A stretch of DNA of 64,000 nt from Candidatus Omnitrophota bacterium (GCA_023140385.1 JAGLLT010000018.1:6071-70070), one strand, 5' to 3'; positions 26,755-48,242 are shown, counted from the stretch's first letter. The notes: generated by a model from the sequence alone, not told the origin. Program-made: numbers and translations.

Positions 26755-28284
26755 ATGAAAAAAATAAAATTTATGGCAGGGTTGGTTTTCTTTTTAGTTT
26801 TTTGCTTTTTGGAAACACCGGTTATCCGCGCGGACGGTGGTTTAGTATCCATAGAGGCGGAGGATGAGGAGATTTCTGATGTCTTATACTCAATTGCCGA
26901 AGATAATAACTTAAATCTGGTTGTCGGTAAGAACATAAGCGGCAGGGTAACGGTTAAGCTTGACAGTGTTCCCTTAGAAGATGCCCTGAGGGCAATTTTA
27001 CAGCCGAATAGTTATACCTATACTATTGACGGGGATATGGTTACCGTTTACAGTTATGGTGAATTTCAGCAGCACGAGAGATTCAGCCCTCTGGTAACTA
27101 AGGTTTTTACCCTGGAGAACATTGAGGTCTCCTCCCTAAGACGAGCCTTTTTATCTATGAAGACAACCAGGGGAAGAATGGAGCTGAACTTATTGGGCAA
27201 TCAGGTAATTATAACGGATACTAAGGATAGGATAAAACAGCTAGAGAAGGCTTTAAAGGAGATGGATGTTAAGAGGGACTTTAAAAAGTATAAGCTGAAT
27301 TATGCTAAGGCCGCGGATGTTATAGGAAAATTGACCCAGATTATTTCAGAAGACAGGGGCGACGTATTTTTAGATGAAAGAACCAATAGCATTGTAATCA
27401 GGGCCGCGGGCCCTCTGCTTCAGAATATTGATGAGTTGATTGAAGGATGGGATGTACAGCACAAGCAGGTTTTGATTGAAGCGAAAATCTTAGAGGTAAC
27501 CTTAAATAAGAACAAAAAGCTGGGCATTAACTGGGAGTATGATACACCTGATTCCGCCCGGCGGGGAGAACCCGCCCAGTGGGACCTGAGGGGAGATTTT
27601 TCTCAGAACCTGACCTCGGGAGGGATCTTTCAGGTTGGCACTTTGACCGCTGATGATTATCAGATAACGCTGGAGATGCTGGAGAGTCACAGTGATACTG
27701 AAGTTCTTTCAAGTCCCAGGATTGTTGTTATAGACAACCATGAAGCTAATATTTTGGTCGGCAGTGAAGAGCCCTATATAGTTACTTCCACAGATCCTGA
27801 CACCGGCTGGATATTTGAAGAGACAAAGTTTAAAGATGTGGGTTTGAAATTAGTGGTAACCCCCCAAATAGATGAGAATGATTATGTTACAATGACTATC
27901 CATCCCGAGGTAAGCACCGCCAGGCGGGTGGCTGAGGTATCCAATGCTTTAGCTATAGACACGACCCAGGCCGATACGACTCTGATGGTTAAAAATGGAG
28001 AAACGGTTGTCTTGGGAGGGTTAATGAAGGATACGCGCTCTAAGACGGTAAAAAAGGTACCTCTTTTAGGCGACATTCCTATTCTCGGATACTTGTTCAG
28101 AAGCACAGAAGAGGAGGATAAAAAAACTGAAATAATTGTTTTTATTACTCCCCATATATTAACTGATGACAATCGGCAGTCTGTTTCCCGCGAGAGAATT
28201 AAGGGTGTAGCTGAAAGGACAAATACCACCTTTGATCTGCTTGATGAAGGTGTGCAATTTGAACAGGAAGAACGACTCCAGTAA
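26755..28284 (+). CDS. Secretin (PilQ/GspD family) with a PilQ-like N0 domain
   Basis: Signal peptide. N0-like domain (ISDVLYSIAEDNNLNLVVGKNISGRVTVKLDSVPLEDALRAIL). Secretin_N-like domain. C-terminal secretin domain with the VPLLGDIPILGYLFR signature. Confidence 0.8.
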   Translation: MKKIKFMAGLVFFLVFCFLETPVIRADGGLVSIEAEDEEISDVLYSIAEDNNLNLVVGKNISGRVTVKLDSVPLEDALRAILQPNSYTYTIDGDMVTVYSYGEFQQHERFSPLVTKVFTLENIEVSSLRRAFLSMKTTRGRMELNLLGNQVIITDTKDRIKQLEKALKEMDVKRDFKKYKLNYAKAADVIGKLTQIISEDRGDVFLDERTNSIVIRAAGPLLQNIDELIEGWDVQHKQVLIEAKILEVTLNKNKKLGINWEYDTPDSARRGEPAQWDLRGDFSQNLTSGGIFQVGTLTADDYQITLEMLESHSDTEVLSSPRIVVIDNHEANILVGSEEPYIVTSTDPDTGWIFEETKFKDVGLKLVVTPQIDENDYVTMTIHPEVSTARRVAEVSNALAIDTTQADTTLMVKNGETVVLGGLMKDTRSKTVKKVPLLGDIPILGYLFRSTEEEDKKTEIIVFITPHILTDDNRQSVSRERIKGVAERTNTTFDLLDEGVQFEQEERLQ

Positions 28285-28286
28285 TT

Positions 28287-29894
28287 ATGCCAAATCCCGC
28301 GCAAAAAACACAAGTTACCGTAAAAGATTATCTCCTTATAATATTTCTGCGTAAGAAATTTTTTCTCCTTCCCTTTTTAATTGTCTTTTTTACCGCTTCT
28401 ATCGGAAGTTTTTTTATGCCTAAGTATTACCGTTCAGCGGTAATGGTGAAGGTGGAAGATAAAAAGCCGGTTAATCCTTTAGCGGTGCCGGAAAGAAGGG
28501 GCACGACTGATGAAGATAAAACCTTAGTTGAAAAAATGAGAACTCTTACAGAAGAAATCTTAAGCTACCACCGCTTAATTTTTTTAATAAATGAATTGAA
28601 TCTTCGGGAAAGTCTTGGCAGTATTTCAACTACTACGGAGTCGCTAATTACAGCTTTAAGAAAAAGCATAAAAGTCAAGATGATATCCCCTGAAATTTTC
28701 CTGGTCTCTTATGAAGATAAAGATCCCCAGCAGGCAAAGGATGTCGTTAATAGGTTAGTGGGGATATTTATCGATGAGCAGATTAAGCAAAAAGAAGAAG
28801 AGGCCATGGCCGGAGTTGAGTATGCCGAGTCTGAGGCCGAACTTTATAAAGAAGAACTTGAAAAGGCGGAAGAAAAATTTAAGAAGTACAGAGAAAAACA
28901 CGCCTTGCAGCTGCCGGGTAGAGAGCTTGATATGAACGTTGACATTCTGGTCAGCTATGAGCTTCAGCTAACCAGTTTAAGAATGGACCAAAAGAACCTG
29001 CAGGAAGAAATTAACAAGATAAAGAGGCAGTTGAGCGGCAGAGAAGCGGTAATTATCTCTGATGATATGCTTGATTTAAACCCTATAGTTATTGAACTTA
29101 ATAGAGATTTGCAGGAGCTGCGGCTCGCAATAGATAATCTTCTATTGAGTGACCCGGAGTCAGAAAAGATATATGAGCTTCAACAGGCCTTAGAAGATAC
29201 ACGCCGGCGCCTGCAGGAAGAGATAGAGAAGACGGTTAACGCGGAGACCATAGTCAGCGACCCCTTATTTTATCAGCGCCTGTCCCAACGCTTTAAAGGC
29301 GCCGATCAGAGAATGAATGAGCTAAAGGATAGAGAGAGCGAGTTAACGCGGCTGAAGGAGATGTATGAGAAGAGGATAAAGACCCTGCCCGCACAGGAAG
29401 CGGAGTATAGCCGTTTGGGCAGGGACGTTGAGCTAAACAGCCAGTTATACAGGTCTCTCCGGATAAAGGCGGAAGAAGGCCGCCTGACAGCAGAGGAACT
29501 AAAGAAAATAGGTATTAATTATGAGTTGATAGAAGAAGGCCGTCTTCCTCTCAAGGCCTCCAAGCCGAAAAAGCTGTTAATTACTGTAGTTTCTTTACTT
29601 TTGGGTGTTATGTCGGGCTTTGGCTGTGTGTTTCTGGCAGAGTTTTCAGACCGCTCCTTTAAAAGTACCGAAGATGCCATTGGCTATATGGAAATACCGT
29701 GCCTGGGCTCTGTGTCCAAGATAATGACACGGGGTGAGCTAGCTTCCAGAAGGAGAAGAGAAAGAAGCGCCGCTATCCTGATTGTATGTTTAGCAGTTAT
29801 ACTAATTACCGCCGGTATAGTGTCAACCTATAAAGAAAATGAAGAGGTAAGATTGAAAATTGCCGAGCAGGAAAAACTTGAAGAAGCTGATTAA
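28287..29894 (+). CDS. Polysaccharide co-polymerase / chain-length determinant (Wzz/GumC/EpsF-like PCP)
   Basis: 535 aa. N-terminal TM, long coiled-coil periplasmic region, second TM near the C-terminus, short cytoplasmic tail. It starts 3 nt after the secretin stop. Confidence 0.65.
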   Translation: MPNPAQKTQVTVKDYLLIIFLRKKFFLLPFLIVFFTASIGSFFMPKYYRSAVMVKVEDKKPVNPLAVPERRGTTDEDKTLVEKMRTLTEEILSYHRLIFLINELNLRESLGSISTTTESLITALRKSIKVKMISPEIFLVSYEDKDPQQAKDVVNRLVGIFIDEQIKQKEEEAMAGVEYAESEAELYKEELEKAEEKFKKYREKHALQLPGRELDMNVDILVSYELQLTSLRMDQKNLQEEINKIKRQLSGREAVIISDDMLDLNPIVIELNRDLQELRLAIDNLLLSDPESEKIYELQQALEDTRRRLQEEIEKTVNAETIVSDPLFYQRLSQRFKGADQRMNELKDRESELTRLKEMYEKRIKTLPAQEAEYSRLGRDVELNSQLYRSLRIKAEEGRLTAEELKKIGINYELIEEGRLPLKASKPKKLLITVVSLLLGVMSGFGCVFLAEFSDRSFKSTEDAIGYMEIPCLGSVSKIMTRGELASRRRRERSAAILIVCLAVILITAGIVSTYKENEEVRLKIAEQEKLEEAD

Positions 29895-29927
29895 TTTTGA
29901 TAATGGATTGGGAGTACAAGTATAAAG

Positions 29928-30701
29928 ATGGATAATTTTTCAGAATCGATAAAAAGAGCGGCTGAAGATAGAGAGCAGATGCTGAAGAAAAGCCGAATCG
30001 CGCCCACTTCGGTGGTGCGGGCCAAAGATGGCTCAGGTATAGACGCGAGAGTCGTTACCTATCACAGCCCGAAGTCAAACATAGCCGAAAATTACAGAGG
30101 CATTTTTACCCATCTTAAAAATGCTTCAGAAAAGCTTAACGCTAAGGTAATCGCTATTGTCAGCTCCTCTCTTAACGAAGGCAAGAGTATTACGGCTGTT
30201 AATTTGTCGGTGATTATGGCGGCAGATTTTGGGAAAAAGGTTTTATTGCTTGACTGTAACTTAAGAAGCCCGCGAATAGACGAGTTGTTAAATATAAATG
30301 CCCAAGGCGGCCTTTCAGAGATCTTATCTGATAACTTAACTTCTAAGGCGGCTGTAAAGCCTACGGGGATTAACAATCTTTTCGTAATAACCGCGGGCAA
30401 AGAGGCCGGTAGTCCGGTTGAGCTGTTACATAGTCAAAAACTGCCGCGGTTATTAAAAGAATTGAGAGCGGAGTACGATTATATAATTATTGATACAGCG
30501 GCAGTTATTCCTTATTCTGATTTTAAAGTAATGGCGCCCTGGATAGACGCGGCGGCCCTGGTTGTTAGGGTTCATAAGACTTCGCGCGAGGTAATAACGA
30601 GGGCAGAGGCTATGTTGAAGGAGTTAAGAATTAACGTTCTTGGTTTTATGCTCACGGACGTTGAATATTACATTCCGGACTTTATATATCGTCACCTTTG
30701 A
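29928..30701 (+). CDS. BY-kinase-type tyrosine autokinase (CpsD/CapB-like P-loop ATPase)
   Basis: Walker A-like SSSLNEGKS, Walker A' LLLDCNLRSP, Walker B DYIIIDTAAV, and a tyrosine-rich C-terminus (EYYIPDFIYRHL). Confidence 0.7.
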   Translation: MDNFSESIKRAAEDREQMLKKSRIAPTSVVRAKDGSGIDARVVTYHSPKSNIAENYRGIFTHLKNASEKLNAKVIAIVSSSLNEGKSITAVNLSVIMAADFGKKVLLLDCNLRSPRIDELLNINAQGGLSEILSDNLTSKAAVKPTGINNLFVITAGKEAGSPVELLHSQKLPRLLKELRAEYDYIIIDTAAVIPYSDFKVMAPWIDAAALVVRVHKTSREVITRAEAMLKELRINVLGFMLTDVEYYIPDFIYRHL

Positions 30702-30759: not shown

Positions 30760-30797
30760 AACCAAAATCCAAAGGTAGTGGGTTTTGGTTTTTTTAA
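30760..30797 (+). terminator. Possible rho-independent terminator after the BY-kinase gene
   Basis: Inverted repeat AACCAAAA...TTTTGGTT followed by TTTTTTT. The stem is AT-rich, so it is weak. Confidence 0.35.
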
Positions 30798-30847: not shown

Positions 30848-32278
30848 ATGAAAACTATCCAAAGAATCGCGAAAAATACGGCTATTTTAACTGCGGCTGA
30901 GATAGTAAATAAAGCCTTATCTCTATTTTTATATATTGCCATTGCTAATTATTTAAGAGCCGCCGGCTATGGCCGGTTTTCGTTTATTATAGCGCTTTTG
31001 GCCCTCTTCCAAGTGCTGGCAAACTTTGGCCTTAATAAACTGATTATCAGAGATGTGGCCAAAAATAAAGAGATAACCCGCGCTTACGTATCTTTTATGA
31101 TGAAGCTTAAAGCCTTTTTTTCGTTAAGCGCGTATCTTATTTTTATTTTATCTGTTTGTTTGATGAAAAAACCACCGGAAGTTATTTTCGGGGCGTATTT
31201 GATAGGCCTCTCAATGATATTTATCAGCCTATCCAACGTTTATCTGTCTGTTTTTAATGCTCACGAGAAACTGGAAATAAATGCCATCTCTTTGATTTTA
31301 GTAAAGATAGTCATTGTGGGACTGGTAATTCTATTTATTAGCTTAAAAGGAAGCCTCTTGCTTATTTTGGGCGCCTTTGTCGCCGGCGAGGCTTTGAGAC
31401 TATTGGTACTTTGGCTGGTTTATGATAAAAGTTTTAAGTGTAAACTTTCAGAAGAAGTTGTTAAATTATCAGTAAAGAGGATTGTAAAAACTGCTTTCCC
31501 GTTTGTCCTGGCAGGAGTCGCCTCTTTGATATATATGCATGTCGATAAGATTATGATTTCTGTTATCAAAGGAGATAAAGCTGTCGGCTGGTATAGCGCC
31601 GCCTATACCCTTATCGTAGGGTTAATGTTTATTCCGCGCTGCTATACTCTTTCCGTTTTTCCCGCTATCTCTCGTTACGCGAAAAGTTCCAAGAGGCTAT
31701 TGAGTATTTCCTGGCAAAGATCAGTCAAATATCTTTTGATTATCTCTTTACCTATCGCGGCCGGCGTATTTATTTTAGCTGAGAGGTTTATAAATATTTT
31801 ATACCATAGCGGCTATGAAAATAGTACCGTTGCTTTAAAAATATTAATACTGGCTATACCATGGATTTTTGTAAATTCGATAAATATTTATTTGTTGTAC
31901 GCGGCAAATTTTCAAAAGCGGGCAATGTTTATAATTCTGGCCAGCGCTCTTTTAAACATAGTTTTAAATTTCATTTTTATTCCGCGTTTTAGTTATATAG
32001 GTGCCGCCTGGGCAACAGTTTTGGCGGAAGTTGCCAATAGCCTGATGCTCTTTATTTTTATATACACAGGTATGAATTTAAGAATAGAGATTCAGAACAC
32101 GCTTATTAAGCCGCTGGTAGCCGCCTTTTTTATGGGGACACTGATTTATTATTTCAGATCAGGTAACCTGATAATAATTATTGTGACGGCATCTATTTTA
32201 TACGCGGGCGCGCTTACTTTACTAAGGACATTTGATAGAGAAGATAGGGATATAGTAAAAAAAATAATTACGGCATAA
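30848..32278 (+). CDS. Oligosaccharide flippase (Wzx/MOP superfamily polysaccharide biosynthesis protein)
   Basis: 476 aa with about 12-14 TM segments. Conserved N-terminal motif of PST/Wzx-family flippases (KNTAILTAAEIVNKALS...YGRFSFI). Confidence 0.65.
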   Translation: MKTIQRIAKNTAILTAAEIVNKALSLFLYIAIANYLRAAGYGRFSFIIALLALFQVLANFGLNKLIIRDVAKNKEITRAYVSFMMKLKAFFSLSAYLIFILSVCLMKKPPEVIFGAYLIGLSMIFISLSNVYLSVFNAHEKLEINAISLILVKIVIVGLVILFISLKGSLLLILGAFVAGEALRLLVLWLVYDKSFKCKLSEEVVKLSVKRIVKTAFPFVLAGVASLIYMHVDKIMISVIKGDKAVGWYSAAYTLIVGLMFIPRCYTLSVFPAISRYAKSSKRLLSISWQRSVKYLLIISLPIAAGVFILAERFINILYHSGYENSTVALKILILAIPWIFVNSINIYLLYAANFQKRAMFIILASALLNIVLNFIFIPRFSYIGAAWATVLAEVANSLMLFIFIYTGMNLRIEIQNTLIKPLVAAFFMGTLIYYFRSGNLIIIIVTASILYAGALTLLRTFDREDRDIVKKIITA

Positions 32279-32324: not shown

Positions 32325-33797
32325 ATGAAAATTATTAAAGGCTTAATGGATAATAAAGGAACCTTAGCACAGAAAACAGCCAGAGGCGGGATCTGGGTAT
32401 TCGGCTCTTTTTTCTTTGCCAAGGTACTATTTTTTATCAGAACGGTTATTCTGGCCAGACTTCTCATCCCTAATGATTTTGGGATGATGGGCATTGCTAT
32501 TCTTGCAATGACAGGTATGCAGGTACTTACCGAGACCGGAATTGATCAGGCGATAATTCAAAAGAAAGGAGTTACCAAAGACGCACTTGATACCGCCTGG
32601 GTTATATCTGTTGCGCGCGGAATTATACTTTTTATCGTTCTCTATTTGTTATCTCCAGCTATTGCCGCTTTTTATAATAATCTTATGCTTGAACCTTTAC
32701 TAAAAGTGCTCTCTATTTCTTTTCTTTTTTTGGGGTTACAAAATATCGGTGTTGTCTTTTTTCAAAAAGAGTTAAACTTTAAAAAAAGAGCTTTGTTTAC
32801 CACTGCAACAGACGTTATAAATATAATTTTTACCGTGTTATTCGCGGTAATTCTAAAAAATGTTTGGGCTGTGGTAATTGGTTGTGTTGTCGGTAATTTG
32901 GCGAAGCTGATTATATCATATCGGATTCAAGCTTTTCGTCCTTGTTTTAAATTTAATCCGAAAGCTGCTAAAGAGTTACTGAAATTTGGAAAGCACGTTT
33001 TTGGGGCAAGCGTAATGATTTTTTTCGTTACTCAAGGAGATGATGCTTTGGTTGGTAAGATGTTAGGATTAGAAGCGCTTGGTTTATATGTTTTAGCCTA
33101 TAGCTTGTCCAATATGCCAACAACGGCGATTACGCATGTTATTTCCCAGGTGAGCTTTCCGGCCTATTCAAAAGTGCAGGATGACACTAAAAGGCTTGGG
33201 AGAGGGTACTTAAAAATATTAAAGTTTACCGCGTTATTAACTATACCCTTGGCAGCCGGACTTTTTATTTTGGCTCCCGAATTTATAAAGATAGTATACG
33301 GTGAAAAATGGCTGCCTATGCTTCCCGCGGTTTTGATTATGTGTTTCCTGGGTTTTTTCCGCGCCATCGGAGCGACGATGGGACCTGTTTTCTTTGCGGT
33401 TGGTAAACCGCACATCCAGCACAAGATAAAGTTATGTGAGTTGATAACAATGATTGTAATTATCTATCCGTTAATAAAGATGTTTGGCATCGTTGGCGCC
33501 GCCCTGGCCGGCACATTTGTCTATTTCTTAAGCTTAATATTGCATTATAATAATCTCATTAAAGTTATTAAGGGCATAAAACTTGAAATTTTTAAAACTA
33601 TAAGCAAGCCCTTAGTTTTGAGTTTACTGATGGCGGTTTTTATCTTTTTGCTAAAAAAGCACTTTCTTATATGTATAAATTTAAGCGGTTTATTTTTTCT
33701 CTCTATAGTTGGCTTAGTTTTTTATACAGCCTCAATCTTTTTTATTGATAAAGAGGGAATTGAATTTATGAAAACAACGATTAAACTTATCAAGTAA
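32325..33797 (+). CDS. Second Wzx-like flippase (MOP superfamily)
   Basis: 490 aa polytopic membrane protein. N-terminal motif and topology of the PST family (LAQKTARGGIWVFGS..., ...LGLEALGLY...). Confidence 0.65.
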   Translation: MKIIKGLMDNKGTLAQKTARGGIWVFGSFFFAKVLFFIRTVILARLLIPNDFGMMGIAILAMTGMQVLTETGIDQAIIQKKGVTKDALDTAWVISVARGIILFIVLYLLSPAIAAFYNNLMLEPLLKVLSISFLFLGLQNIGVVFFQKELNFKKRALFTTATDVINIIFTVLFAVILKNVWAVVIGCVVGNLAKLIISYRIQAFRPCFKFNPKAAKELLKFGKHVFGASVMIFFVTQGDDALVGKMLGLEALGLYVLAYSLSNMPTTAITHVISQVSFPAYSKVQDDTKRLGRGYLKILKFTALLTIPLAAGLFILAPEFIKIVYGEKWLPMLPAVLIMCFLGFFRAIGATMGPVFFAVGKPHIQHKIKLCELITMIVIIYPLIKMFGIVGAALAGTFVYFLSLILHYNNLIKVIKGIKLEIFKTISKPLVLSLLMAVFIFLLKKHFLICINLSGLFFLSIVGLVFYTASIFFIDKEGIEFMKTTIKLIK

Positions 33798-33809: not shown

Positions 33810-35207
33810 ATGAAGTATGATTTAGAAGAACGTCCTCTAATTGAGTTTTCCGGCTTAGTAACGTTTTTTATAATTTTCTTTTCACTGGCCTTTGGAGTTA
33901 GCTTTTTATTCTTACCGTGGTATGTAGTTTTGGTTCTATTTACCGGGTTTGCTATTACTATAGGAATTGTGTTTAATCCGTTCATTGGTGTTCTGCTTTT
34001 TTTAGTAACTACATATGTTCATGTTATGGCTTTTGCTCCTGTCGAGCTTATTAAATCGCAGCCGGCAGTTATGGCAGGCGGCATTGTACTGCTTGCCTGG
34101 CTTTTTCATCTTATTATTTACAAAGATTTTAAGCTACCCAGGTCTCCGCAGTTTTTATGCGTGATTGGCCTTACTCTTATGGGGTTTTTTTCCGTAATTT
34201 TTCATTTAAACGAATACGAAAACTTTTTTTTGGTTTTTCATTTTATTAAGATGTTAATACTGTACTTTTTGGTAACTAACTTGATAAAAACCGAAAAGCA
34301 GTTATACGTTTCACTTACTGTAATATTAATATTAACTTTCGGTACCGCCCTTTCCGGCGTTATGCAGTATTTACAGAGCGAAGCAACTATAGAGGTTGAT
34401 AGAGTCGCGGGTTTTGAAGGCAACCCGAATGCCCTGGCAATAAATTTAGTTTTTATAATTCCCTTTATCGTAGGCCTTATTCAATATTTTTCCTCTTTGA
34501 AATTAAAAGCATTGCTCTTGTGCGTTTTTCTTATTGTATTATCTGGTATTGTTTTTACATTTTCCCGGGCGGGCTTTCTCGCTCTGGCTGTGGTTTTTCC
34601 GATAAGTTTATGGAGATTTTCGAAGAGGCGGAATAGAATATGGCTGATAATAGTGTTTATTGTTTTTCTTGGCCTATTGATTCCTTTTTTACCTGAGCAG
34701 TACTGGGAAAGAATTCAGTCAATAACTGATTTTAGCGATGTAAGTATTATTGGCAGGCTGGATAGTTATCGTATCGGCTGGCAAATGATAAAAGATAATC
34801 CCTTTCTTGGAATTGGCCCGGGAAGATGGGCTTATAAGTATGTAGCTTACGCGGCAAAACTAATAGGAATTACAACTTATAACTGGTGCCCTTTTAATGT
34901 ATTTATTGAAACAGGAGCGGAAAACGGCCTCTTTGCTTTAGGATTCTATGTTTTTATTATCTTTTTCTCATTTAAAGAACTGAATAAGGCTAAGATTATT
35001 TTTGAAAAGAAGGGCAAGTTATTGCTATCAAAAGCATCGCAAGCTTTTTCAATAACCTTAATTGGATTTTTGGTAAATACAATCTTTGAAGCGGGACTGG
35101 GATTAAAAGTGTTTTGGATTATTGCAGGGCTTTCTGTTGTACTTAAAGAGGTCGCTTTAAATTTAGAACTTAATACTTCAATTAATACTTTTAAAACGAA
35201 TGGATAA
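33810..35207 (+). CDS. O-antigen ligase / Wzy-like polymerase family protein (exosortase-associated O-glycosylation-ligase-like)
   Basis: 465 aa multi-TM protein with the Wzy_C-type loop motif (FTFSRAGFLALAVVF...GIGPGRW...H). Confidence 0.65.
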   Translation: MKYDLEERPLIEFSGLVTFFIIFFSLAFGVSFLFLPWYVVLVLFTGFAITIGIVFNPFIGVLLFLVTTYVHVMAFAPVELIKSQPAVMAGGIVLLAWLFHLIIYKDFKLPRSPQFLCVIGLTLMGFFSVIFHLNEYENFFLVFHFIKMLILYFLVTNLIKTEKQLYVSLTVILILTFGTALSGVMQYLQSEATIEVDRVAGFEGNPNALAINLVFIIPFIVGLIQYFSSLKLKALLLCVFLIVLSGIVFTFSRAGFLALAVVFPISLWRFSKRRNRIWLIIVFIVFLGLLIPFLPEQYWERIQSITDFSDVSIIGRLDSYRIGWQMIKDNPFLGIGPGRWAYKYVAYAAKLIGITTYNWCPFNVFIETGAENGLFALGFYVFIIFFSFKELNKAKIIFEKKGKLLLSKASQAFSITLIGFLVNTIFEAGLGLKVFWIIAGLSVVLKEVALNLELNTSINTFKTNG

Positions 35208-39837: not shown

Positions 39838-41082
39838 ATGTTAATGAGACTACTATACCTAACCCTGATGGCATCACTTAAAGATGAGAGTGATATCAGT
39901 ATGTTTAGGGATGCGGGGTATGAGGTTTTTGTACTAAATGCAGATAAAAGCCGCAACTTTAATGAATTAAGCGGCTTGCCAGGTTTTAAGGAAATAATTA
40001 ATTTATACGAAATAAGAAAAGGACGCTTTTCTAATTTGAAAGTAAATACCAAGCGCCTTTTAAAGAAAACATTAAAACCTCTTATGCTTGATAAATGTTG
40101 TTTTTTAATGAAACTCCGGGAACGAATAATGAAAAAGCAGCTTTTAAAAAATGATAACAAACTAATGAAGATGCTCGCGGATATATTAAAACAGTATAAG
40201 ATTGAGGTAGTTTATTCTAGTTGGAGCATTACTTGTTTTAAAGAGATAAAAGCAATTCAAGGGTGCGGCGTGAAAGTACCCATTATTTTAAATATTGAAA
40301 CATACCCATTTTTTATTATAAATACGGTAGGACAAACTTATAAAGAAGATCAAATATTTAAAAATATAATTGAAAAGCTTGATGGAAGAATACACTGTAC
40401 GGAAGTTATGTATAGCTATTTTAATCGTCAATTCAATTTAAAGGATCATGGAAAGGACTTAAAAGCCATCAGCTATTTTCGCCAAAACTATCATTGCGGC
40501 ATAGAACGCACCCCTCTATCAAGAAAAGACAAGGAGCCGCATATTGTTTTTATTGGCACCACCGGGTTTTCAGAGCGCACTATTGATGATGTCAGCAGGC
40601 AAATTTACCAAATTGCTGACAAAGGTATCCACGTACATATTGGGAAGCCTGACATCAATATGAAAAAGCATCCATATCTTCATATCTTTCCACTATTTAA
40701 CAAAATGGATATTGTTAATGGCAATTTTGCCGCTTTCATGACACAGTTCGATGCCTGTGCCGTTCTTTATAATATTAACAAGAAGTATTCGCGTTTTAAC
40801 AATAGTGTTCCCATGCGGTTTCTCTTTGCAATTTGCGCCGAAATACCAATTGTCCTGCCGAGGGGTTACTTTGGCAGTTGCGAAGAAATTATTAACAAAT
40901 ACAAAATTGGCTTTTCATATGCCAACCCAGATGAACTTAAAATGAAAATATCAAATAAAAATTTTATGTTTGAATGCAAAAACAGTATAAAAAAAATTGC
41001 GCCGCTATTAACATTCGAAAATCAATTTTCTGTTTTTGACGCGTTTATAAAAGCGGTTGTTAAGGAAAAAGCAAAGGAATGA
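39838..41082 (+). CDS. Hypothetical protein, possibly a divergent GT-B fold glycosyltransferase
   Basis: 414 aa. N-terminal MRLLYLT-like start and a Rossmann-like C-terminal half. No canonical GT4 E-x7-E motif found. Confidence 0.3.
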   Translation: MLMRLLYLTLMASLKDESDISMFRDAGYEVFVLNADKSRNFNELSGLPGFKEIINLYEIRKGRFSNLKVNTKRLLKKTLKPLMLDKCCFLMKLRERIMKKQLLKNDNKLMKMLADILKQYKIEVVYSSWSITCFKEIKAIQGCGVKVPIILNIETYPFFIINTVGQTYKEDQIFKNIIEKLDGRIHCTEVMYSYFNRQFNLKDHGKDLKAISYFRQNYHCGIERTPLSRKDKEPHIVFIGTTGFSERTIDDVSRQIYQIADKGIHVHIGKPDINMKKHPYLHIFPLFNKMDIVNGNFAAFMTQFDACAVLYNINKKYSRFNNSVPMRFLFAICAEIPIVLPRGYFGSCEEIINKYKIGFSYANPDELKMKISNKNFMFECKNSIKKIAPLLTFENQFSVFDAFIKAVVKEKAKE

Positions 41083-41141: not shown

Positions 41142-42128
41142 ATGAAATTAATAGTTAATGTATCAATAATAATGCCTTGTTATAATGAGGTACAACACAT
41201 TGCAAAGTGCATGGAATCGATAGTTGCTAACGATTTTCCAAAGAATAAATTGGAAGTGCTTATATATGATGGCGGAAGCACTGACAGCACATTAAATATC
41301 CTAAAAGAATATACCCAAAAGTATTCATTTATTCACGTAAAAAGTAATAACCGCAAAATACAGGCGGCAGCTATGAATTTGGGCATTAAAGAAGCTCAAG
41401 GTGATATTGTTATAAGAATGGATGCTCACACTGTTTATGAAAAGGATTATATTTCTCAAGCGGTAAAGCTGCTAAATGAGACGAGCGCGGTAAATGTTGG
41501 CGGGCCTCAAGCTGGTCAGGGCAACTCGTATTTTACGAATAGCTTAGTTATGGCACTATCAAATGCTTTTATTTCTGGTAATGCCGTATATAGGTCTGAT
41601 AAAAACGTCCAACAGTATGTTGACACTGTTTATTTAGGTGCATGGCATAAAAAGGATTTAGAGGCTATTGGAGGCTTTGATGAATCTTTTATGGTTAATG
41701 AAGACTATGAATTAAATTATCGGCTTCGCAAAAAAAGCGGACAGATTTTATTTTCACCCAAAATTAAATCAACCTATTATGCGCGGAGTTCTTTATTTAA
41801 ACTAATTAAACAGTATTTTAGATATGGCTTTTGGAAAGCTAAAACTCTTAAGAAGCACCCCGCGTCTTTAAAAATCAGGCAAATGGCGGCACCGCTTTTT
41901 ATTTTAACATTATTTTTTTCTATAGCGTTCACTTTTTGCCAAAATTACTATTTATTGTGGCTTTTGTCGGGTTGCTATGTAATTGTGTTTGTGTTATTAT
42001 CAAGAAGCAGCCTTAACATGAAAAACATAAAATATGTGCCTGCTGTTTTTTTTATCGCTTTATTTATTCATCTTTCGTGGGGAGTGGGTTTTTTTGCCGG
42101 CCTTATTAGGTGGTGTTTTTATAAATAA
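41142..42128 (+). CDS. Glycosyltransferase family 2 with C-terminal TM segments
   Basis: VSIIMPCYNE, DGGSTD and DAH motifs (GT-A fold DxD-type), followed by hydrophobic C-terminal helices. Confidence 0.8.
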   Translation: MKLIVNVSIIMPCYNEVQHIAKCMESIVANDFPKNKLEVLIYDGGSTDSTLNILKEYTQKYSFIHVKSNNRKIQAAAMNLGIKEAQGDIVIRMDAHTVYEKDYISQAVKLLNETSAVNVGGPQAGQGNSYFTNSLVMALSNAFISGNAVYRSDKNVQQYVDTVYLGAWHKKDLEAIGGFDESFMVNEDYELNYRLRKKSGQILFSPKIKSTYYARSSLFKLIKQYFRYGFWKAKTLKKHPASLKIRQMAAPLFILTLFFSIAFTFCQNYYLLWLLSGCYVIVFVLLSRSSLNMKNIKYVPAVFFIALFIHLSWGVGFFAGLIRWCFYK

Positions 42129-42133
42129 AAAGT

Positions 42134-43120
42134 ATGGAGCTTAATATGAACATTTTTATTACGGGCAGTAGTGGTTTTATAGGTAAACATTTAATTGAAA
42201 AGCTAATAAGCCGGAAAAATGTGGTAACCGGGTATGATGTAACTGAACCTGCAATTTCAAGTGAGTTATTTAAGCATATAGATGGAAATATATGTGATAA
42301 AGATAGCTTAATAAATGCCTTGAATCAAAAAAGATACGATATCATTATCCATCTGGCGGCTAAACATCATGATTTTGGCGTTTCTGAAGATGAGTTTTTC
42401 GAAGTCAACGAAGGTGGAACAAAAAATCTAACAAAGGCCGCTGATGCTTGCGGCGTAAAGAACTTTTTATTTTTTAGTTCAGTAGCAGTCTATGGAGATA
42501 GAAGCAAGCCTGTAATGGATGACGCGGTTTGTGAGCCAGCCTCGTTTTACGGTAAATCTAAACTAGCCGCGGAAAAAGTATTAGAAGAATGGACGGCTGT
42601 GAACAATGAAAGAGTGGTTAATGTAATAAGGCCGGTGGTAGTCTTTGGTCCTGAAAATTATGCTAATATGTACCATTTGATCAGTAAAATTGCTAATAAG
42701 AAATTTATATTTATTGGAAAGGGAAGCAATATTAAGTCAATTGCCTACGTAGAAAATGTTGTTAATGCCGCGTTATTTCTTTTAGATAATATGGCGCCGG
42801 GTATTAGCTATTATAACTATTCCGATGAACCCCAAATGCCGGTAAAAAAGATAGTTGAAAAAATAGCTTATCACGCGGGGGTGAAGATTTCCAGATTTCG
42901 GATACCGCTTTTTCCGGCTTTAGCATTAACCTATTTTTTTGACTTGTTGGAAAAGATAACAGGGCATCTGTTTCCGGTTACTGCCAAAAGAATTAAAAAA
43001 TTCAATACACCGACGCACTATGAGTCAAGAAAGATAAGGCTTAAAGGATATAAACAGTTAGTTTCATGTGATGAGGCTTTCGGAAAAACTCTGAAGTGGT
43101 TTATGGACAAAGGAAAGTAG
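42134..43120 (+). CDS. NAD-dependent epimerase/dehydratase (SDR family)
   Basis: Rossmann motif ITGSSGFIGKHL and catalytic YGKSK (YxxxK) motif. Confidence 0.8.
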   Translation: MELNMNIFITGSSGFIGKHLIEKLISRKNVVTGYDVTEPAISSELFKHIDGNICDKDSLINALNQKRYDIIIHLAAKHHDFGVSEDEFFEVNEGGTKNLTKAADACGVKNFLFFSSVAVYGDRSKPVMDDAVCEPASFYGKSKLAAEKVLEEWTAVNNERVVNVIRPVVVFGPENYANMYHLISKIANKKFIFIGKGSNIKSIAYVENVVNAALFLLDNMAPGISYYNYSDEPQMPVKKIVEKIAYHAGVKISRFRIPLFPALALTYFFDLLEKITGHLFPVTAKRIKKFNTPTHYESRKIRLKGYKQLVSCDEAFGKTLKWFMDKGK

Positions 43121-43138
43121 ATTAAAACAAAGCGGGAA

Positions 43139-43942
43139 GTGAATATGGATATGAATAACACCTTTCATAAAGATAGGGCCGATGAAATTATTCGCAAAAA
43201 AGACGAAAAAGATTTTCATGATAAATTTTTTGCCGAAAGTGCGGAAAGAAAAGCTCAGGAAAAATTTTACGCTAAAGAGGTCAAAGAGCTTCTTTTTAAT
43301 TATGCCATTTCTCAAATGGGAGACTTAAAAGGTAGAAAACTTCTCTATTATGGTTGTGGAATTAATAAAAAACCATTGTCGAAATTTATTTCAGAAGGCG
43401 CAGAAGTAAAGGCTATTGATTTGTCCTCAGAGGCCGTTGAGATTATGAAAAAGTTCATAATAAAAGAAAAATTAAATGATTATGCGGAAATGCTGGAAAT
43501 GGATGCGGAAAAATTATCGTTTGATAATAATATGTTTGATTTAGTATTCGGATCCGCAATAATTCACCATTTGGACATAAGAAAGGCAAGTTCAGAGATC
43601 AGCAGGATTTTGAAAAAAGGAGGAAAAGCTATTTTCATAGAACCCCTGGGGATGAATCCTATTATAAACTTCTATCGCTTAGTAACCCCTAAAGACAGGA
43701 CAAAAGATGAGCATCCCTTAAAAATGGGCGACGTAGATACAGTTAAAAAGAATTTTACTTCTTGCAGACAAAAAAATTTCTTTTTTCTTGCCTTGGGCGC
43801 TTTTTTTTGGAAATATATAAGAAATGAGGCGCTTTTTAGGCTGACTTTTAAGATATTTGTAAAGGCGGATAATTGCCTTTTTAAGGTTGTTCCATTTTTT
43901 AAAAGGTACTGTTGGTGTACTGTAATTACCTTGCAAAAATGA
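43139..43942 (+). CDS. Class I SAM-dependent methyltransferase
   Basis: Motif I-like LLYYGCGIN and motif II/III-like DLVFGSAIIHHL and LKKGGKAIFIEP. Confidence 0.6.
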   Translation: MNMDMNNTFHKDRADEIIRKKDEKDFHDKFFAESAERKAQEKFYAKEVKELLFNYAISQMGDLKGRKLLYYGCGINKKPLSKFISEGAEVKAIDLSSEAVEIMKKFIIKEKLNDYAEMLEMDAEKLSFDNNMFDLVFGSAIIHHLDIRKASSEISRILKKGGKAIFIEPLGMNPIINFYRLVTPKDRTKDEHPLKMGDVDTVKKNFTSCRQKNFFFLALGAFFWKYIRNEALFRLTFKIFVKADNCLFKVVPFFKRYCWCTVITLQK

Positions 43943-43991: not shown

Positions 43992-45029
43992 ATGACTAAA
44001 AGCTATTTTTTCACCTTCATAATTTGTATCGCGGTTTCTTTTATTGCGACGCCTTTTATCAGAAAACTGGCCCGTTGGGGGGGGTTTTTGGATAAGCCCG
44101 GCAGGCGCAAGGTGCACAGAGAGAGTATTGCCAGCCTGGGCGGTATGGCAATTTTCATCTCTTTTTTGGCGGGCATATTTTTTGTTTATCATATAATGGC
44201 GCTAACGGCTGATAGGAACCTGCTTACCGGCCTTTTGATTGGAGCTTCCGCGATTGTCCTTCTTGGTGTCTACGATGACATAAAGAATGTACCCGCTTTG
44301 TTAAAGTTGGCCGGCCAGGTGGCGGTTGCCTCAATTGTTTATTATTACGGTTTTAGAATTGAAGAGTTTTTTGGCCTGTCTGTAGATACTCCCTTTCTTA
44401 AACTCTTATCCTATCTTGTTACGGTTGGCTGGATAGTGGGGGCAATTAATGCCATTAACCTTTTAGATGGTTTAGACGGCCTGGCTTGCGGCATAACGGC
44501 TATAGTGGCTGTATTTTTGTTTACCGCCTCTTTTATTGACGGCAACTATATGCTTTGTTTTTTGACCGCGGCTCTTGCCGGAAGCTGTCTGGGTTTCTTA
44601 CCTTACAATCTCTATCCGGCCAGTATATTTATGGGAGATACCGGAAGCATGCTCTTGGGCCTAATTTTAGCCCTGGTAGCTATAGAAAGTTCTCAGAAAA
44701 GTACGACTATTATTGCCGTTCTTGTTCCTATGATTGCCATGGCGGTTCCTTTAATTGATACGTTCTTATCTATTTTAAGACGCCTTATTAAAAAAGAGCC
44801 GCTTTTTAAAGCTGACAAAAATCACATTCACCACCGTCTGCTGATGGAGGAGAAATCGCAGATGAAGGTGGTATTGACTTTATATTCCGTTACCTGTTTT
44901 TTTGGTTTGATTGCTCTCGGCGTACGAGGGATAAAGGGTATTTATATGGTTGGCGCTCTGGCTGTTGTCAGCCTGGTTACTTTCAGGTGGATGCGTAATT
45001 CGGGCTTTCTGGATATAGAGGGGAAGTAG
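43992..45029 (+). CDS. Polyprenyl-phosphate N-acetylhexosamine-1-phosphate transferase (WecA/MraY family priming glycosyltransferase)
   Basis: 345 aa polytopic membrane protein with [17 protein letters not shown] and MGDTGS motifs of the MraY/WecA family. Confidence 0.8.
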
Positions 45030-45049
45030 TTTATGGTCGGTGGGAAACT

Positions 45050-45922
45050 ATGGGTTTAAGAAATAATTTTTCCATACTAAAGCCTGTTGTTAAAGCAAAC
45101 TTTGTTTTCTTACGGCGTTATCCGAGAGCTTTTATTCCTTTCCTGATCACGGCGCTTGCCAGCTCCCTTGTCCTTCTTATTTTATATTTGATTCCCATGA
45201 GCCCCCTTAACAGCCTGCTTGGCCAGCCGGTTACAGACTTCTACGGGGCGCAGTATCTGCATTATCCGTATAATTTTACACTTCTGCCGCGTCTTTTTTC
45301 AAATGCAAGGAACTTTTTGGTTAATCCTTTGATGGGAAGTCTGATGGCGGCCATTGCCGTAGGTATGGTTTGTAATTATCACCGGGGCCGGGAGCCGGCC
45401 TTTTTCAGAAACTTTAATAAGGCCATGAGAAGGTTTATTCATATAGCCGGCTGTATGGTTCTAATGGTGACGGTAAGTTACCTTTTATCGCGGGCGGTTC
45501 CTTATTTGGTAACTAAACTTTTTCCCGGCATTTCCCGTCCGGCACTCATAAATTCAGCCGTCACTTTTTTTGTCCTGGCAGGCGCTGAATGCTTTTTCGT
45601 TTACACCTTTATAGCGATTATGTACAAGAGGATGAAGTTTGGGGGCGCGCTGAAGGAGAGCTTTGTATTTTCAGGCCGCTTATATCTTGTAACCTTCGCT
45701 CTGATTTTTTCCTGCAGACTGCTTGATTTTGGCGCTACTCTTATTGTTTTAAGACAGCCTTACCTGATGGATAGGTTTGTACCCGATATTACTCTTCTAA
45801 TCTTATTTTTCGGGATTATAGTAGCGGTTTTTTCAGATGCTTTGGTATATACCCTTGCTGCTAATTTGTATATCTTTAAAGAGCATATTGGAGAGTCATT
45901 AAGCAATGATGAAGTTCAATAA
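45050..45922 (+). CDS. Hypothetical polytopic membrane protein
   Basis: 290 aa with about 6-7 predicted TM helices. No family recognised. It overlaps the next gene by 17 nt. Confidence 0.35.
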   Translation: MGLRNNFSILKPVVKANFVFLRRYPRAFIPFLITALASSLVLLILYLIPMSPLNSLLGQPVTDFYGAQYLHYPYNFTLLPRLFSNARNFLVNPLMGSLMAAIAVGMVCNYHRGREPAFFRNFNKAMRRFIHIAGCMVLMVTVSYLLSRAVPYLVTKLFPGISRPALINSAVTFFVLAGAECFFVYTFIAIMYKRMKFGGALKESFVFSGRLYLVTFALIFSCRLLDFGATLIVLRQPYLMDRFVPDITLLILFFGIIVAVFSDALVYTLAANLYIFKEHIGESLSNDEVQ

Positions 45923-46775
45923 AAAAATACTTAAATTTTCGCGGGTTATCCTGATTCTTGCAACACTGTGTCTGTCGGGGTGCTACGGCGCCTATGAAGC
46001 GGAGAGGGCCTACTGGCTGGTTAACCGTAAATATGCACGCTTTATAAAGGAGTTTGAAGCGGCGGATGAGGTTGGCCGCGAGAGGCTGATTAGCAATAGG
46101 TCGAAGGAGATAATAGTTGATTTTAGAAAGATGATTATTAGTTATCCCGGCTGGCCGCCGTCCGCTCAGGCCCAGCTGATGATTGCCGGCATATATAATA
46201 CGCGGAATGAGACCGAGAGGGCTATAAGTGAATATCAAAGGGTTCTGAAGGAGTATCCCGCCTTAAATAAACAGTGCGCGAGCGCCGTATATGCTATCGC
46301 CGTCATTTATCAACAGGAGGGTAGTTGGCCGGAGGCCGAAGAGAACTTTAAGAGAGTTATGAAAGAGTATTTCTATACAAATACCGGCTTAAGGGTTCCG
46401 CTGCCGTTTAGCCGTTCTTTAAGAGCCAGAGGCAGGTTTGAAGCGGCGGAAGATGTTTATGGCGAAGCTATCAGTAAATATACAACCTACATTAGTGAAA
46501 ATCCGGATGAGCTCAATGTCCTTTTGGCGTTGGAACAGCTTATTAATTGTTACGGTGATCAGAACCGATGGCAGGAAGCCGTAGACTTTTTAGACAACAA
46601 AATAAACAAAGGCCCGGATACTCCTTTGGTCTTGCAATCTTTAGCTATAAGTGCTACTATATACGAAACGCATCTTGACAATAAAGAAAAGGCCTATAAA
46701 ATTTACCGTCGGGTTGTAGAAAAATTTCCCGATAGCCCGGCGGCAAAAAATATAAAGGAACGTCTTAATTTATGA
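45906..46775 (+). CDS. TPR-repeat lipoprotein (PrsT-like)
   Basis: Signal peptide with lipobox LSGC. TPR-like repeats follow (AQLMIAGIYNTRNETERAISEYQRVLKEYP etc.). Confidence 0.6.
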   Translation: MMKFNKKILKFSRVILILATLCLSGCYGAYEAERAYWLVNRKYARFIKEFEAADEVGRERLISNRSKEIIVDFRKMIISYPGWPPSAQAQLMIAGIYNTRNETERAISEYQRVLKEYPALNKQCASAVYAIAVIYQQEGSWPEAEENFKRVMKEYFYTNTGLRVPLPFSRSLRARGRFEAAEDVYGEAISKYTTYISENPDELNVLLALEQLINCYGDQNRWQEAVDFLDNKINKGPDTPLVLQSLAISATIYETHLDNKEKAYKIYRRVVEKFPDSPAAKNIKERLNL

Positions 46776-46788
46776 CAGAGGGCGGGTT

Positions 46789-47628
46789 GTGAAAAAACAA
46801 GGCACGTTAATTAAGCTTGTTATAATTTTTGTCCTGCTGGTAATTACCTATCTGCCGACTTTTAAGTGGATGATAGAAAGGTTTGAAGAAACAGAGTCTT
46901 ACTATTCTCACGGTTATCTGGTGCCTTTCATAGCTCTGGGGCTAATTTATTGGAAGAGGGAAAGGCTTAAGCAGCTTCAAGCTTCATCAAGCGGCATCGG
47001 TTTTTTTCTTATCGCGGCCGCTCTGCTTATGCACGCCGCGGGGCTTATTTTAAAGATAGGCTTTATCAGCGGAGCTTCCTTGCTGATGGCCTTATTCGGG
47101 CTTAGCCTGTATCTGGGCGGAGCGGCTATTGCTAAAGAGCTTTTCTTCCCCATATCCTTTCTTATCTTTATGGTACCTATGCCCAGAGTGCTAACCATCC
47201 ATATAAGTTTTAAAATGAAACTTCTCGCGGCGCAGGCGGGAACCGTTTTAATTAACTGGCTGGGAATAACGGCTGTGCGTAATGGAAGCATAGTTCACCT
47301 GCCTAACACCTCGCTTACCGTCGGCTCTCCCTGCAGCGGCTTAAGGTCATTGATAGCTTTGTGCGGGCTGGGAGTTTTGTTTGCCTATGTCGCTGATTTA
47401 TCGCGTTTTAAAAAATTTATCCTCTTTCTGGCCTCTATTCCCTTAGCTTTGGGCGCCAACATATTGCGCATAACAATGCTTTTATGGGTGGCCCGCAAAT
47501 ATGGACAGGAAGTGGCTACGGGAAAGTTTCATGACTACTCCGGGATGTTTGTTTTTATATTCGCGCTCGCGGGTTTAATTTTAATCAACAAGGCATTACA
47601 ATGGGAACCGAAAAAACAAAGTACTTAG
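46789..47628 (+). CDS. Exosortase (EpsH/Xrt family transpeptidase)
   Basis: 279 aa, 8-TM topology. Catalytic Cys in VGSPCSGLRSL, conserved Arg in NILRIT, and the characteristic N-terminal Y-rich motif (ETESYYSHGYLVPF). Confidence 0.8.
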   Translation: MKKQGTLIKLVIIFVLLVITYLPTFKWMIERFEETESYYSHGYLVPFIALGLIYWKRERLKQLQASSSGIGFFLIAAALLMHAAGLILKIGFISGASLLMALFGLSLYLGGAAIAKELFFPISFLIFMVPMPRVLTIHISFKMKLLAAQAGTVLINWLGITAVRNGSIVHLPNTSLTVGSPCSGLRSLIALCGLGVLFAYVADLSRFKKFILFLASIPLALGANILRITMLLWVARKYGQEVATGKFHDYSGMFVFIFALAGLILINKALQWEPKKQST

Positions 47629-48242
47629 TAGTAATTATAATTTTAGCTCTCAGCTCTTTCTGGGTGACCTTTGTTTTGAACAGGAAGGGCGAGGTAAGTC
47701 AGGGCAGTTCAAAGCGGATTGAAATTCCCTACAGTTTAGGTGAATGGAATGGTAAAGACGCGGACATCAGCCCCGAAGAGTTGGAAGAGATATACCGGAT
47801 ATTGGGCACGGATAAGGTTATCCTGCGCAATTACGTTAATGATGACGGCAGTATTATTCAGCTTTACGTTGTTTACAGTCAGAAGGACAGAACAAGTTTT
47901 CATCCTCCCGAGTACTGTTATATAGGAGGAGGCAATGCCGAATTAATCGGAAAAGGCTTGGTGCAATTATCACTGTATGATAGTAAGCTGGCAGCTAACA
48001 GGCTTATCTTTCAAACGCCGAAAGGAACTCAGCAGGTTATTTACTGGTACGCGGCCGGCAAAAAAATGTATGCCAGTTATAACAAACAGCAGATTCGCCT
48101 GGTGCTGGATATGCTTAAGGGCGGAGAGTTTCAGGGGCTTATGGTGCGCCTTTCAAGCCTTTCCCGGGAGGACAAGCAAGCCGATGATCTTGTTCATTTC
48201 CAGAATTTTGCTAATGAGATTATGCCTTATCTGAGAAAGTAA
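47601..48242 (+). CDS. EpsI-family exosortase-associated protein
   Basis: 213 aa. N-terminal TM plus a periplasmic domain with EpsI-like motifs (W.G.D...E...LG.D....R.Y....G..I.LYV.YS.......HPPEYCY.GGG). It overlaps the exosortase gene by 28 nt. Confidence 0.65.
   Translation: MGTEKTKYLVVIIILALSSFWVTFVLNRKGEVSQGSSKRIEIPYSLGEWNGKDADISPEELEEIYRILGTDKVILRNYVNDDGSIIQLYVVYSQKDRTSFHPPEYCYIGGGNAELIGKGLVQLSLYDSKLAANRLIFQTPKGTQQVIYWYAAGKKMYASYNKQQIRLVLDMLKGGEFQGLMVRLSSLSREDKQADDLVHFQNFANEIMPYLRK

Follow-up and report, generated by a model that had tools for sequence, protein, structure and literature searches.

A 64,000-nt stretch of the genome of a Candidatus Omnitrophota bacterium (the window; coordinates are positions in it, on one strand, 5′ to 3′) contains a polysaccharide locus that ends with the genes of an exosortase and an EpsI-family protein. 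The feature under study, at 26755–48242, had been described in a first-pass annotation as a co-directional locus that starts with a secretin and closes with a tetratricopeptide repeat (TPR) lipoprotein, an exosortase and an EpsI-family protein. Each of the elements described was found in its place on the + strand, which all genes of the window share, and the sequence motifs quoted for them were read as well. The position given for the secretin holds, but the conserved locus opens one gene earlier, with a diguanylate cyclase that begins at 24735. The locus spans 24735–48242, about 23.5 kb.

Gene identities were obtained from Pfam and NCBIfam family scans, and scores are given in bits against the curated cut-offs. 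For comparison, 80 related loci were gathered around the exosortases of species-representative genomes, together with several loci on metagenome contigs. Relatives of the exosortase, as well as those of the secretin, come nearly all from Omnitrophota metagenome-assembled genomes, and the top exosortase match among the GTDB species representatives is 68% identical. The readable sequence of the genome amounts to 74 kb, i.e. the window and 9.7 kb past its end, the latter added via another locus (L099, 20.5 kb). Loci L096 and L007 belong to one contig (ERZ23498525 scaffold_5, 349 kb), and L097 and L009 to another single contig, which indicates that the head and the tail of the gene set form one locus of about 22 kb.

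Judged from gene order in these relatives, the architecture is that of a conserved head (cyclase, secretin, polysaccharide co-polymerase (PCP) and kinase), a variable middle of lower GC content, and a conserved tail consisting of a priming enzyme, a 290-aa membrane protein (TM290), the TPR lipoprotein, the exosortase and EpsI. The middle holds flippases, a Wzy_C protein, glycosyltransferases (GTs), a glycosidase and sugar-modifying enzymes. GC content is ∼0.42–0.45 in the window and drops to 0.34–0.39 at 30–44 kb, which corresponds to this sugar-specific middle.

Exosortase, EpsI and their conserved neighbors

The 279-aa product of the exosortase gene (46789–47628) passes the generic models TIGR02602 (146.9 vs. 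105.55) and PF09721 (205 vs. 25.7), as well as the TIGR04178 signature (69 vs. 23), with the PF09721 match covering model positions 2–250 of 254. The motifs VGSPCSGLRSL, NILRIT and FHDYSG can be read directly from the sequence. Cys182, Arg227 and His248, the proposed active site, are invariant in an alignment of 32 clade members that share 41–91% identity and include the window protein, as are ∼25 further positions. A Kyte-Doolittle scan with 19-mers detected eight hydrophobic segments, as expected of a protein with eight transmembrane (TM) segments. The initial identification of an exosortase survives, given the generic profile matches and the retention of the three catalytic residues. All named subtypes (XrtA, B, C, D, J, N, O, Q, T, V, W, Z and the cyanoexosortases) score below their cut-offs, the nearest being XrtW (182 vs. 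425), XrtA (TIGR03109, 172.8 vs. 208), XrtD (170 vs. 400) and XrtV (135 vs. 313); XrtA is the top-scoring model of an unfused subtype. By these profiles, the protein is a member of the exosortase family that belongs to an unnamed subtype.

The EpsI gene (47601–48242) starts 28 nt before the end of the exosortase gene. Its product has one TM segment, an N-terminal membrane anchor, and passes TIGR02914 (85.6 vs. 42.8) and PF11984 (106 vs. 26.1), scoring below the cut-offs of the B-type (76 vs. 220) and V-type (68 vs. 228) EpsI models. Exosortase-subtype and EpsI hidden Markov models (HMMs) run on 46789–48242 thus returned a generic exosortase and a generic EpsI and no named subtype.

Directly upstream of the exosortase lies the gene of the TPR lipoprotein (45906–46775), whose lipobox LSGC and location are as first annotated. 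The 289-aa protein is BamD/CpoB-like and is not PrsT (TIGR02917, 37 vs. 312). It is preceded by TM290 (45050–45922), which is 100% identical to hypothetical protein KAJ66_03200 of Candidatus Omnitrophica bacterium. No Pfam or NCBIfam model matches TM290, and a profile search found no PDB chain related to it by sequence; among solved structures, a sequence search likewise found none related to the exosortase or to the 414-aa protein described below. A HMMER search of 1.84 billion proteins yielded 453 representatives of TM290, nearly all 260–300 aa in length. The AlphaFold2 model computed from a 70-sequence alignment (predicted local distance difference test (pLDDT) 95.8, predicted template modeling score (pTM) 0.90) superseded an earlier one from 5 sequences (pLDDT 64); it has six membrane segments and a predicted fold similar to those of CysZ and the choline-transporter-like (CTL, PNS1) proteins. 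Sequence identity to these proteins is 8–14%, with no Pfam or PDB sequence match. In the first loop, which is periplasmic by the positive-inside rule, Tyr72 and Pro73 are invariant and His71 is present in at least 90% of the sequences; this His-Tyr-Pro motif has no known equivalent. The lipocone superfamily was also considered and proved irrelevant to TM290. A role in transport or in presenting a substrate would be a guess.

Among 91 loci with a related exosortase (9 of which are redundant contigs, from either the population of the window itself or a single relative), 52 have a TM290 homologue and 60 the TPR lipoprotein. All TM290-positive loci but one also carry the TPR gene, which starts ∼0.7–2.5 kb past TM290, mostly ∼0.8–0.9 kb, and the pair is located either directly upstream of the exosortase or 3–9 kb downstream of it. 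Two apparent fusions were found: P0134 (643 aa) joins a WecA-like Glycos_transf_4 domain to TM290, and P0249 (587 aa) joins TM290 to TPR repeats. These could be gene-calling artefacts; if real, they would back a functional linkage. Because TM290 and the TPR lipoprotein are usually a neighboring pair near the exosortase, and the fusions are consistent with this, we group the two proteins with the exosortase and EpsI in one conserved, putative functional module.

Predicted genes of polymer assembly, export and regulation

The head of the locus starts with an RR-GAF-GGDEF diguanylate cyclase (24735–26741), in which the GGDEF motif and the RxxD I-site are intact. A GGDEF gene is located directly 5′ of the secretin in L094–L098. 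The metagenome contigs of L094 and L095 end just past the secretin; in L096, L097 and L098, the GGDEF-secretin-PCP-kinase order is kept, with secretins 50–71% identical to that of the window and differing upstream genes. The secretin (26755–28284, 509 aa) is composed of a signal peptide, an STN domain, one Secretin_N domain and the secretin domain (PF00263, 171.8 vs. 27.5). It misses the cut-offs of both PilQ (283.7 vs. 284.35) and GspD (283.4 vs. 351.35), and so is not assignable to type IV pili or to a type II secretion system (T2SS). After a gap of 3 bp follows the PCP (28287–29894), a Wzz-like protein with a GNVR domain that matches PF13807 and scores 224.7 vs. 278.85 with the chain-length determinant model of the XrtA system (TIGR03007). 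The BY-type tyrosine autokinase is a separate polypeptide (29928–30701) with a Walker A motif and a Tyr-rich C-terminus; it passes TIGR01007 (133.3 vs. 108.05) and scores 147 vs. about 230–231 with the XrtA-associated TIGR03018. The kinase gene and the first flippase gene are 147 bp apart, and in this gap there is a terminator-like hairpin with a 12-bp stem and a T run (30760–30790, a consensus match only), which may be an attenuator or may separate two transcripts of the locus.

In group-1 capsule loci, the place directly upstream of the PCP gene is occupied by wza. No match to Poly_export (Wza/OPX) was found among the window genes scanned or in the precomputed annotations of the complete related loci, and a secretin sits in that position in each relative examined. 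Secretins 42–44% identical to that of the window are also found in the more distant L027, L042 and L051, 4–5 kb upstream of the exosortase. GlyGly-CTERM and MYXO-CTERM clients need the T2SS, a secretin-based machine, for display at the cell surface (PMC11980579). By this precedent, it is plausible that the polymer, sorted proteins, or both cross the outer membrane through the secretin of this locus.

Alternatively, the neighborhood could be composite, with a secretin and a GGDEF gene from a T2SS or type IV pilus abutting an ordinary capsule or exopolysaccharide locus that exports its product through a Wza encoded elsewhere. The secretin comes almost to the PilQ cut-off and scores equally for GspD, the L027 secretin is grouped with pilus-type genes and a GspE-type ATPase, and three prepilin-type genes lie just upstream of the head in L098. 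Against this, the secretin and PCP genes are closely spaced, and the secretin-PCP-kinase order is shared by four genomes, the window included, whose flanks differ. Moreover, there is no pilus or T2SS gene in the window, the complete related loci are devoid of Poly_export genes, and even the L027 secretin cluster abuts the exosortase. We therefore regard a composite origin as quite unlikely.

The two pilus-like neighborhoods have further features of their own. In L027 (3546–9986), PilM/N-like and PilO-like proteins, a 157-aa protein without assignment, the secretin, a PDZ protein and a GspE/PilB-type ATPase (MshEN) are encoded directly 5′ of exosortase-EpsI, which is followed on the 3′ side by a Bac_transf primer, two PEP-CTERM genes, the TM290-TPR pair, a GAF histidine kinase and a sigma-54 regulator. 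The prepilin-type genes of L098 (6290–7597; N_methyl / SBP_bac_10) are in tandem, encode proteins of 134–136 aa and are located just 5′ of the GGDEF-secretin head.

The variable middle opens with two MOP flippases. The first (Polysacc_synt, 30848–32278) matches PF01943 with 111 bits and passes no NCBIfam equivalog; the second (Polysacc_synt_3, 32325–33797) passes NF007773 (274 vs. 273) and matches PF13440 with 283 bits. They are 24% identical to each other. The tandem of Wzx-like flippases noted earlier is confirmed, as both pass family thresholds. L096 also has two, with an epimerase gene between them, and the more distant L097 and L098 have one each; by this comparison, the tandem is a lineage-specific feature. 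That the two flippases serve two repeat units, as had been proposed, is speculation.

The Wzy_C (O-antigen-ligase-like) membrane protein (33810–35207; PF04932, 76.3 bits) has eleven hydrophobic segments, and overlapping genes encode a GT4 (35200–36372) and a GT9 enzyme of the heptosyltransferase family (36359–37477). Next comes a 761-aa protein with a GH20b N-terminal domain (37505–39790; PF02838, 67.7 bits). A GH20b or GH123 protein occupies the matching position in relatives, and this protein is probably a glycosidase that processes the polymer. It is followed by the 414-aa protein (39838–41082), which has no Pfam, NCBIfam or PDB match and is syntenic in L007 and L020, and by a GT2 glycosyltransferase, an NAD-dependent epimerase/dehydratase and a SAM methyltransferase (41142–43942). 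The WecA-like priming enzyme of the first-pass annotation was recovered at 43992–45029 as a polyprenyl-phosphate N-acetylhexosamine (HexNAc)-1-phosphate transferase of the WecA/MraY family (PF00953, 138.5 bits; TIGR02380, 134.8 vs. 326). With this primer, the MOP flippases, the Wzy_C protein, the PCP and the BY-kinase all passing thresholds, most of the claimed full Wzx/Wzy toolkit stands; the word full is an overstatement, since the set lacks a Wza/OPX gene.

Among NCBIfam models, the Wzy_C protein scores best with TIGR03097 (putative O-glycosylation ligase, exosortase A system-associated), and for that reason the protein may be a ligase and not a polymerase. The locus could then be of the O-glycosylation or lipopolysaccharide type, in which an undecaprenyl-diphosphate-linked glycan would be attached by the Wzy_C protein to lipid A-core or to PEP-CTERM proteins, without formation of a free exopolysaccharide. 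The presence of the GT9 heptosyltransferase-family enzyme fits this alternative, as does the fact that the locus has no other candidate ligase and no second Wzy. However, the TIGR03097 score of 106.9 is well below the cut-off of 188, a PCP with a separate BY-kinase is a hallmark of polymerization control in capsule and exopolysaccharide synthesis, and with the Wzy_C protein as ligase the locus would have a chain-length regulator and no polymerase. Such a function seems very improbable.

An AraC/PocR regulator and a PilZ protein are encoded at 52488–53839, the latter with intact RxxxR and DxSxxG motifs. Such a pair lies directly 5′ of TM290 in L009/L010, L015–L017, L022 and L028, and PilZ alone was detected in L025 and L032; in the window, it is located after an insertion that encodes a solute-binding protein (SBP) and a GH94 enzyme. 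As the pair adjoins TM290 in many relatives, that of the window appears to be a displaced part of the system. Since the GGDEF, I-site and PilZ motifs are intact, the locus looks to be controlled by cyclic di-GMP (c-di-GMP). No histidine kinase or sigma-54 regulator corresponding to PrsK/PrsR was found among the window genes; L027 has both a GAF-histidine kinase and a sigma-54 regulator. A GAF-HD_5 (HD-GYP-type) protein at 62066–63241, 14 kb 3′ of the locus, is a possible c-di-GMP phosphodiesterase and would, with the cyclase and PilZ, close a c-di-GMP circuit.

Genes 3′ of EpsI encode, in order, the lipoprotein SBP, GH94, AraC/PocR, PilZ and GH35/42, and then housekeeping proteins. The SBP (lipobox LFGC), which has no genes of an ABC permease or ATPase in its vicinity, and GH94 lie at 48424–52242, and GH35/42 at 53942–56356. 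SBP-GH94 also follows EpsI in the closest relatives L007, L012 and L014; in L017, an SBP gene lies between EpsI and three PEP-CTERM genes.

PEP-CTERM clients in related loci and their absence from the window

Exosortases act on proteins with a PEP-CTERM tail, here called clients, and the distribution of client genes was examined in the 41 related loci that have at least 6 kb on each side of the exosortase, with a search radius of 10 kb. In 29 of the 41, one to six canonical PEP-CTERM genes were found, and 12 have none. They are mostly located 1.5–6 kb downstream, immediately 3′ of EpsI. The tails follow a consensus of roughly VPEPxSxxLLGxGLxGLxGxRRKK; of those tested, 8/8 pass TIGR02595 (NCBIfam) and 9/9 pass PF07589 (Pfam). 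Exosortases 40–57% identical to that of the window adjoin genes with tails passing these two models, and the specificity of the window enzyme is, by relationship, probably canonical as well. The clients are mostly secreted proteins of 200–230 aa; among named families, they come closest to the flocculation protein PepA (floc_PepA, below cut-off), and the client of L009 is a GH26-like enzyme. The only hints of a carbohydrate-binding role for them are an N-terminal NLLxNPGFE-like motif and the CBM_11 match of the tail-less paralogues. In the L096 client, the NPGFE region is weakly similar (E 0.014) to an internal segment of the 761-aa glycosidase (window 38423–38630), which hints at a shared module of carbohydrate-binding type.

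The first-pass annotation saw no PEP-CTERM gene in the window, and three scans agree that there is none in the window or inside the locus. A search of window open reading frames (ORFs) of at least 30 aa in all frames for a C-terminal TM segment with a basic cluster found nothing except the normal last helix of Lnt, and a permissive scan for PEP-like motifs in six-frame ORFs of at least 30 aa in the window gave no match. An HMM derived from the tails of 85 distinct PEP-CTERM sequences in related loci was run over 1224 ORFs of the window and L099; the best hit was an out-of-frame ORF (8.3 bits, E 0.11), and positive controls scored 40–48 bits. A non-canonical client within the window was rejected on the same grounds, there being no C-terminal TM-basic segment but that of Lnt and no match to the tail HMM. 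Two proteins considered individually, of 195 aa (56501–57088) and 149 aa (63268–63717), were dismissed as clients; neither has a C-terminal anchor, and their sequences are of charged or coiled-coil-like character.

L096 is the closest relative on a long contig. Its exosortase and secretin are 66% and 71% identical to those of the window, and synteny between the two extends through the flanks, from MlaD to GH35. There, a canonical PEP-CTERM gene of 217 aa sits between cysS and the GGDEF gene. In the window, CysS is encoded at 22833–24341 and the same slot is merely a 393-bp spacer (24342–24734) with promoter-like sites at 24432–24461 and 24577–24605 (10/12 and 11/12 consensus matches only). No remnant of the L096 gene was found in this spacer by tblastn or blastn. 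Both client slots known from relatives, 5′ of GGDEF and 3′ of EpsI, are empty in the window.

Further information comes from L007, where three secreted CBM_11-like proteins of 193, 193 and 249 aa are encoded after GH94 (15371–17661). They stop (...TIWIDDIYFSD*) exactly where the clients of other loci (...FYVDDVQYNAVPEP...) begin their tail, and for this reason look like tail-less paralogues of clients. As candidates for clients with a new signal they were rejected, since they terminate ahead of the tail and their C-terminus is not hydrophobic. The window has no counterparts of the three genes.

These data could be read as those of an orphan exosortase, i.e. the sub-lineage would have lost its PEP-CTERM clients and would have kept exosortase, EpsI, TM290 and the TPR lipoprotein for another task in polysaccharide assembly or for clients with an unrecognized signal. 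The two empty slots and the tail-less L007 proteins agree with such a loss, and so do the five loci with the closest exosortases (58–68% identity), none of which has a client within 10 kb. However, L096 retains a canonical PEP-CTERM gene at the edge of its locus, the catalytic residues and the other invariant positions of the exosortase are conserved throughout the clade, the window enzyme included, and no alternative C-terminal signal turned up in the window. In addition, the sequence read covers 74 kb, and PEP-CTERM genes can lie apart from EpsH: of five in Desulfovibrio vulgaris, four share a plasmid with the EpsH homologue, and the remaining one is on the chromosome (PMC1569441). Given this dispersal and the 12 of 41 relatives without a client within 10 kb, a client-less window is in itself ordinary. 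We consider an orphan exosortase unlikely.

Because most relatives carry canonical clients and L096 has one at the locus edge, the clients of this exosortase are most likely canonical PEP-CTERM proteins encoded outside the 74 kb read. The gap in this sub-lineage would then probably reflect relocation, the clients having moved away from the locus. The substrate had initially been placed either elsewhere or among non-canonical proteins; the former fits the comparative data much better, and no other signal was found in favor of the latter. Overall, we consider it fairly likely that the locus represents the exosortase/PEP-CTERM polysaccharide system in its Omnitrophota form and that the clients of this genome are canonical and encoded beyond the 74 kb.

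Several points weigh against this interpretation. No client gene was seen within the 74 kb, and the five closest exosortase loci are client-less within the search radius. Client loss could have taken place in this sub-lineage, as L007 has tail-less paralogues of client type. Pfam recognizes no passenger domains in the clients of relatives. The proposed role of the secretin is deduced from position and conservation, and that of TM290 from synteny, the fusions and the predicted fold.

If the locus is indeed such a system, c-di-GMP made by the cyclase and sensed by the nearby PilZ protein would turn on the Wzx/Wzy-type pathway. This pathway would assemble a HexNAc-primed heteropolysaccharide on undecaprenyl phosphate, with the PCP and the kinase setting polymer length, and the secretin, in place of a Wza octamer, would provide the outer-membrane route for the polymer, the processed proteins, or both. 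The exosortase, together with EpsI, TM290 and the TPR lipoprotein, would cleave the PEP-CTERM anchor from the C-terminus of small secreted proteins and deliver these to the cell surface or the matrix.

Comparison with known systems and other genes of the window

The closest described counterpart is the XrtA/PEP-CTERM exopolysaccharide system (Haft et al. 2006, PMC1569441), represented by the Methylobacillus eps locus and the Zoogloea PepA flocculation system. Both it and the window locus have an unfused exosortase followed by EpsI within a polysaccharide locus and a TPR lipoprotein as partner. The top NCBIfam models of the window PCP, kinase, Wzy_C protein and GT4 are those of the XrtA system, all below cut-off, and the clients of relatives are canonical PEP-CTERM proteins with floc_PepA as nearest family. 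In contrast to the XrtA system, the window has GGDEF, PilZ and AraC regulators instead of PrsK/PrsR, a primer of WecA type and not of EpsB type, a short TPR protein (289 aa) in place of the long PrsT, and a secretin without a Wza-type exporter. TM290 has no counterpart in the described system.

The exosortase-EpsI fusions XrtW and XrtD give the highest or near-highest raw scores with the window exosortase (182 and 170), and the window EpsI matches their C-terminal halves. However, the two genes are separate in the window, and the summed scores of ∼241 and ∼233 are far from the cut-offs of 425 and 400. XrtD recognizes VPLPA-CTERM, whereas relatives of the window exosortase adjoin PEP-CTERM clients.

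The group-1 capsule, or Wzy-dependent, pathway is typified by wza-wzb-wzc of E. coli. The window shares with it a primer, MOP flippases, a Wzy_C protein, a PCP, a BY-kinase and an outer-membrane channel gene directly 5′ of the PCP. It differs in that the channel is a secretin and not OPX/Wza, the kinase is a separate protein, and no Wzb phosphatase was seen. Systems with T2SS-dependent display (rhombosortase/GlyGly-CTERM and myxosortase/MYXO-CTERM; PMC11980579) are similar in having a tripartite C-terminal signal that is processed at the inner membrane and a secretin machine that leads to the surface. Their sorting enzymes are unrelated to exosortases, and they depend on a complete T2SS encoded elsewhere, whereas the locus described here contains a lone short secretin.

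It is conceivable, as a tentative and rather doubtful proposal, that the locus represents a distinct, unnamed Omnitrophota system. In such a system, a dedicated short secretin would replace Wza and link the export of polysaccharide, of sorted proteins, or of both to the outer membrane. TM290 and the TPR lipoprotein would be partners on which exosortase-EpsI depends, and they might supply or position the acceptor; the window sub-lineage may then operate without locus-linked clients, or without any.

Three further regions of the window lie away from the locus. A UVR-domain protein, an ATP:guanido phosphotransferase and a ClpC-type AAA+ protein (10145–14195) make up a set resembling McsA/McsB/ClpC, the quality-control system based on protein-arginine phosphorylation, which is best known from Firmicutes. 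A 558-aa ORF without a Pfam family (14209–15885) is located directly 5′ of a lipid-transport set of MlaE/MlaF/MlaD type (15845–18498). A patch of low GC content (0.34–0.38) at 2000–6000 encodes a small nucleotidyltransferase (2702–3010) and a DUF4153 membrane protein (3955–5427) and may be an insertion.

A search of full-text literature found no article combining Omnitrophica with PEP-CTERM, and one article with no more than single passing mentions of exosortase and Omnitrophota. To our knowledge, exosortases are widespread, and it is still not known which molecule accepts their clients, which proteins assist them and how the clients cross the outer membrane. The conserved set described here, consisting of a WecA-like primer, TM290, the TPR lipoprotein, exosortase, EpsI and a secretin beside the chain-length machinery, offers concrete candidates for the missing partners. 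As the acceptor and the export route of exosortase clients are the outstanding questions, these conserved partners should be of moderate value to specialists. The locus also adds surface-polymer biology to the Omnitrophota, an uncultured phylum.

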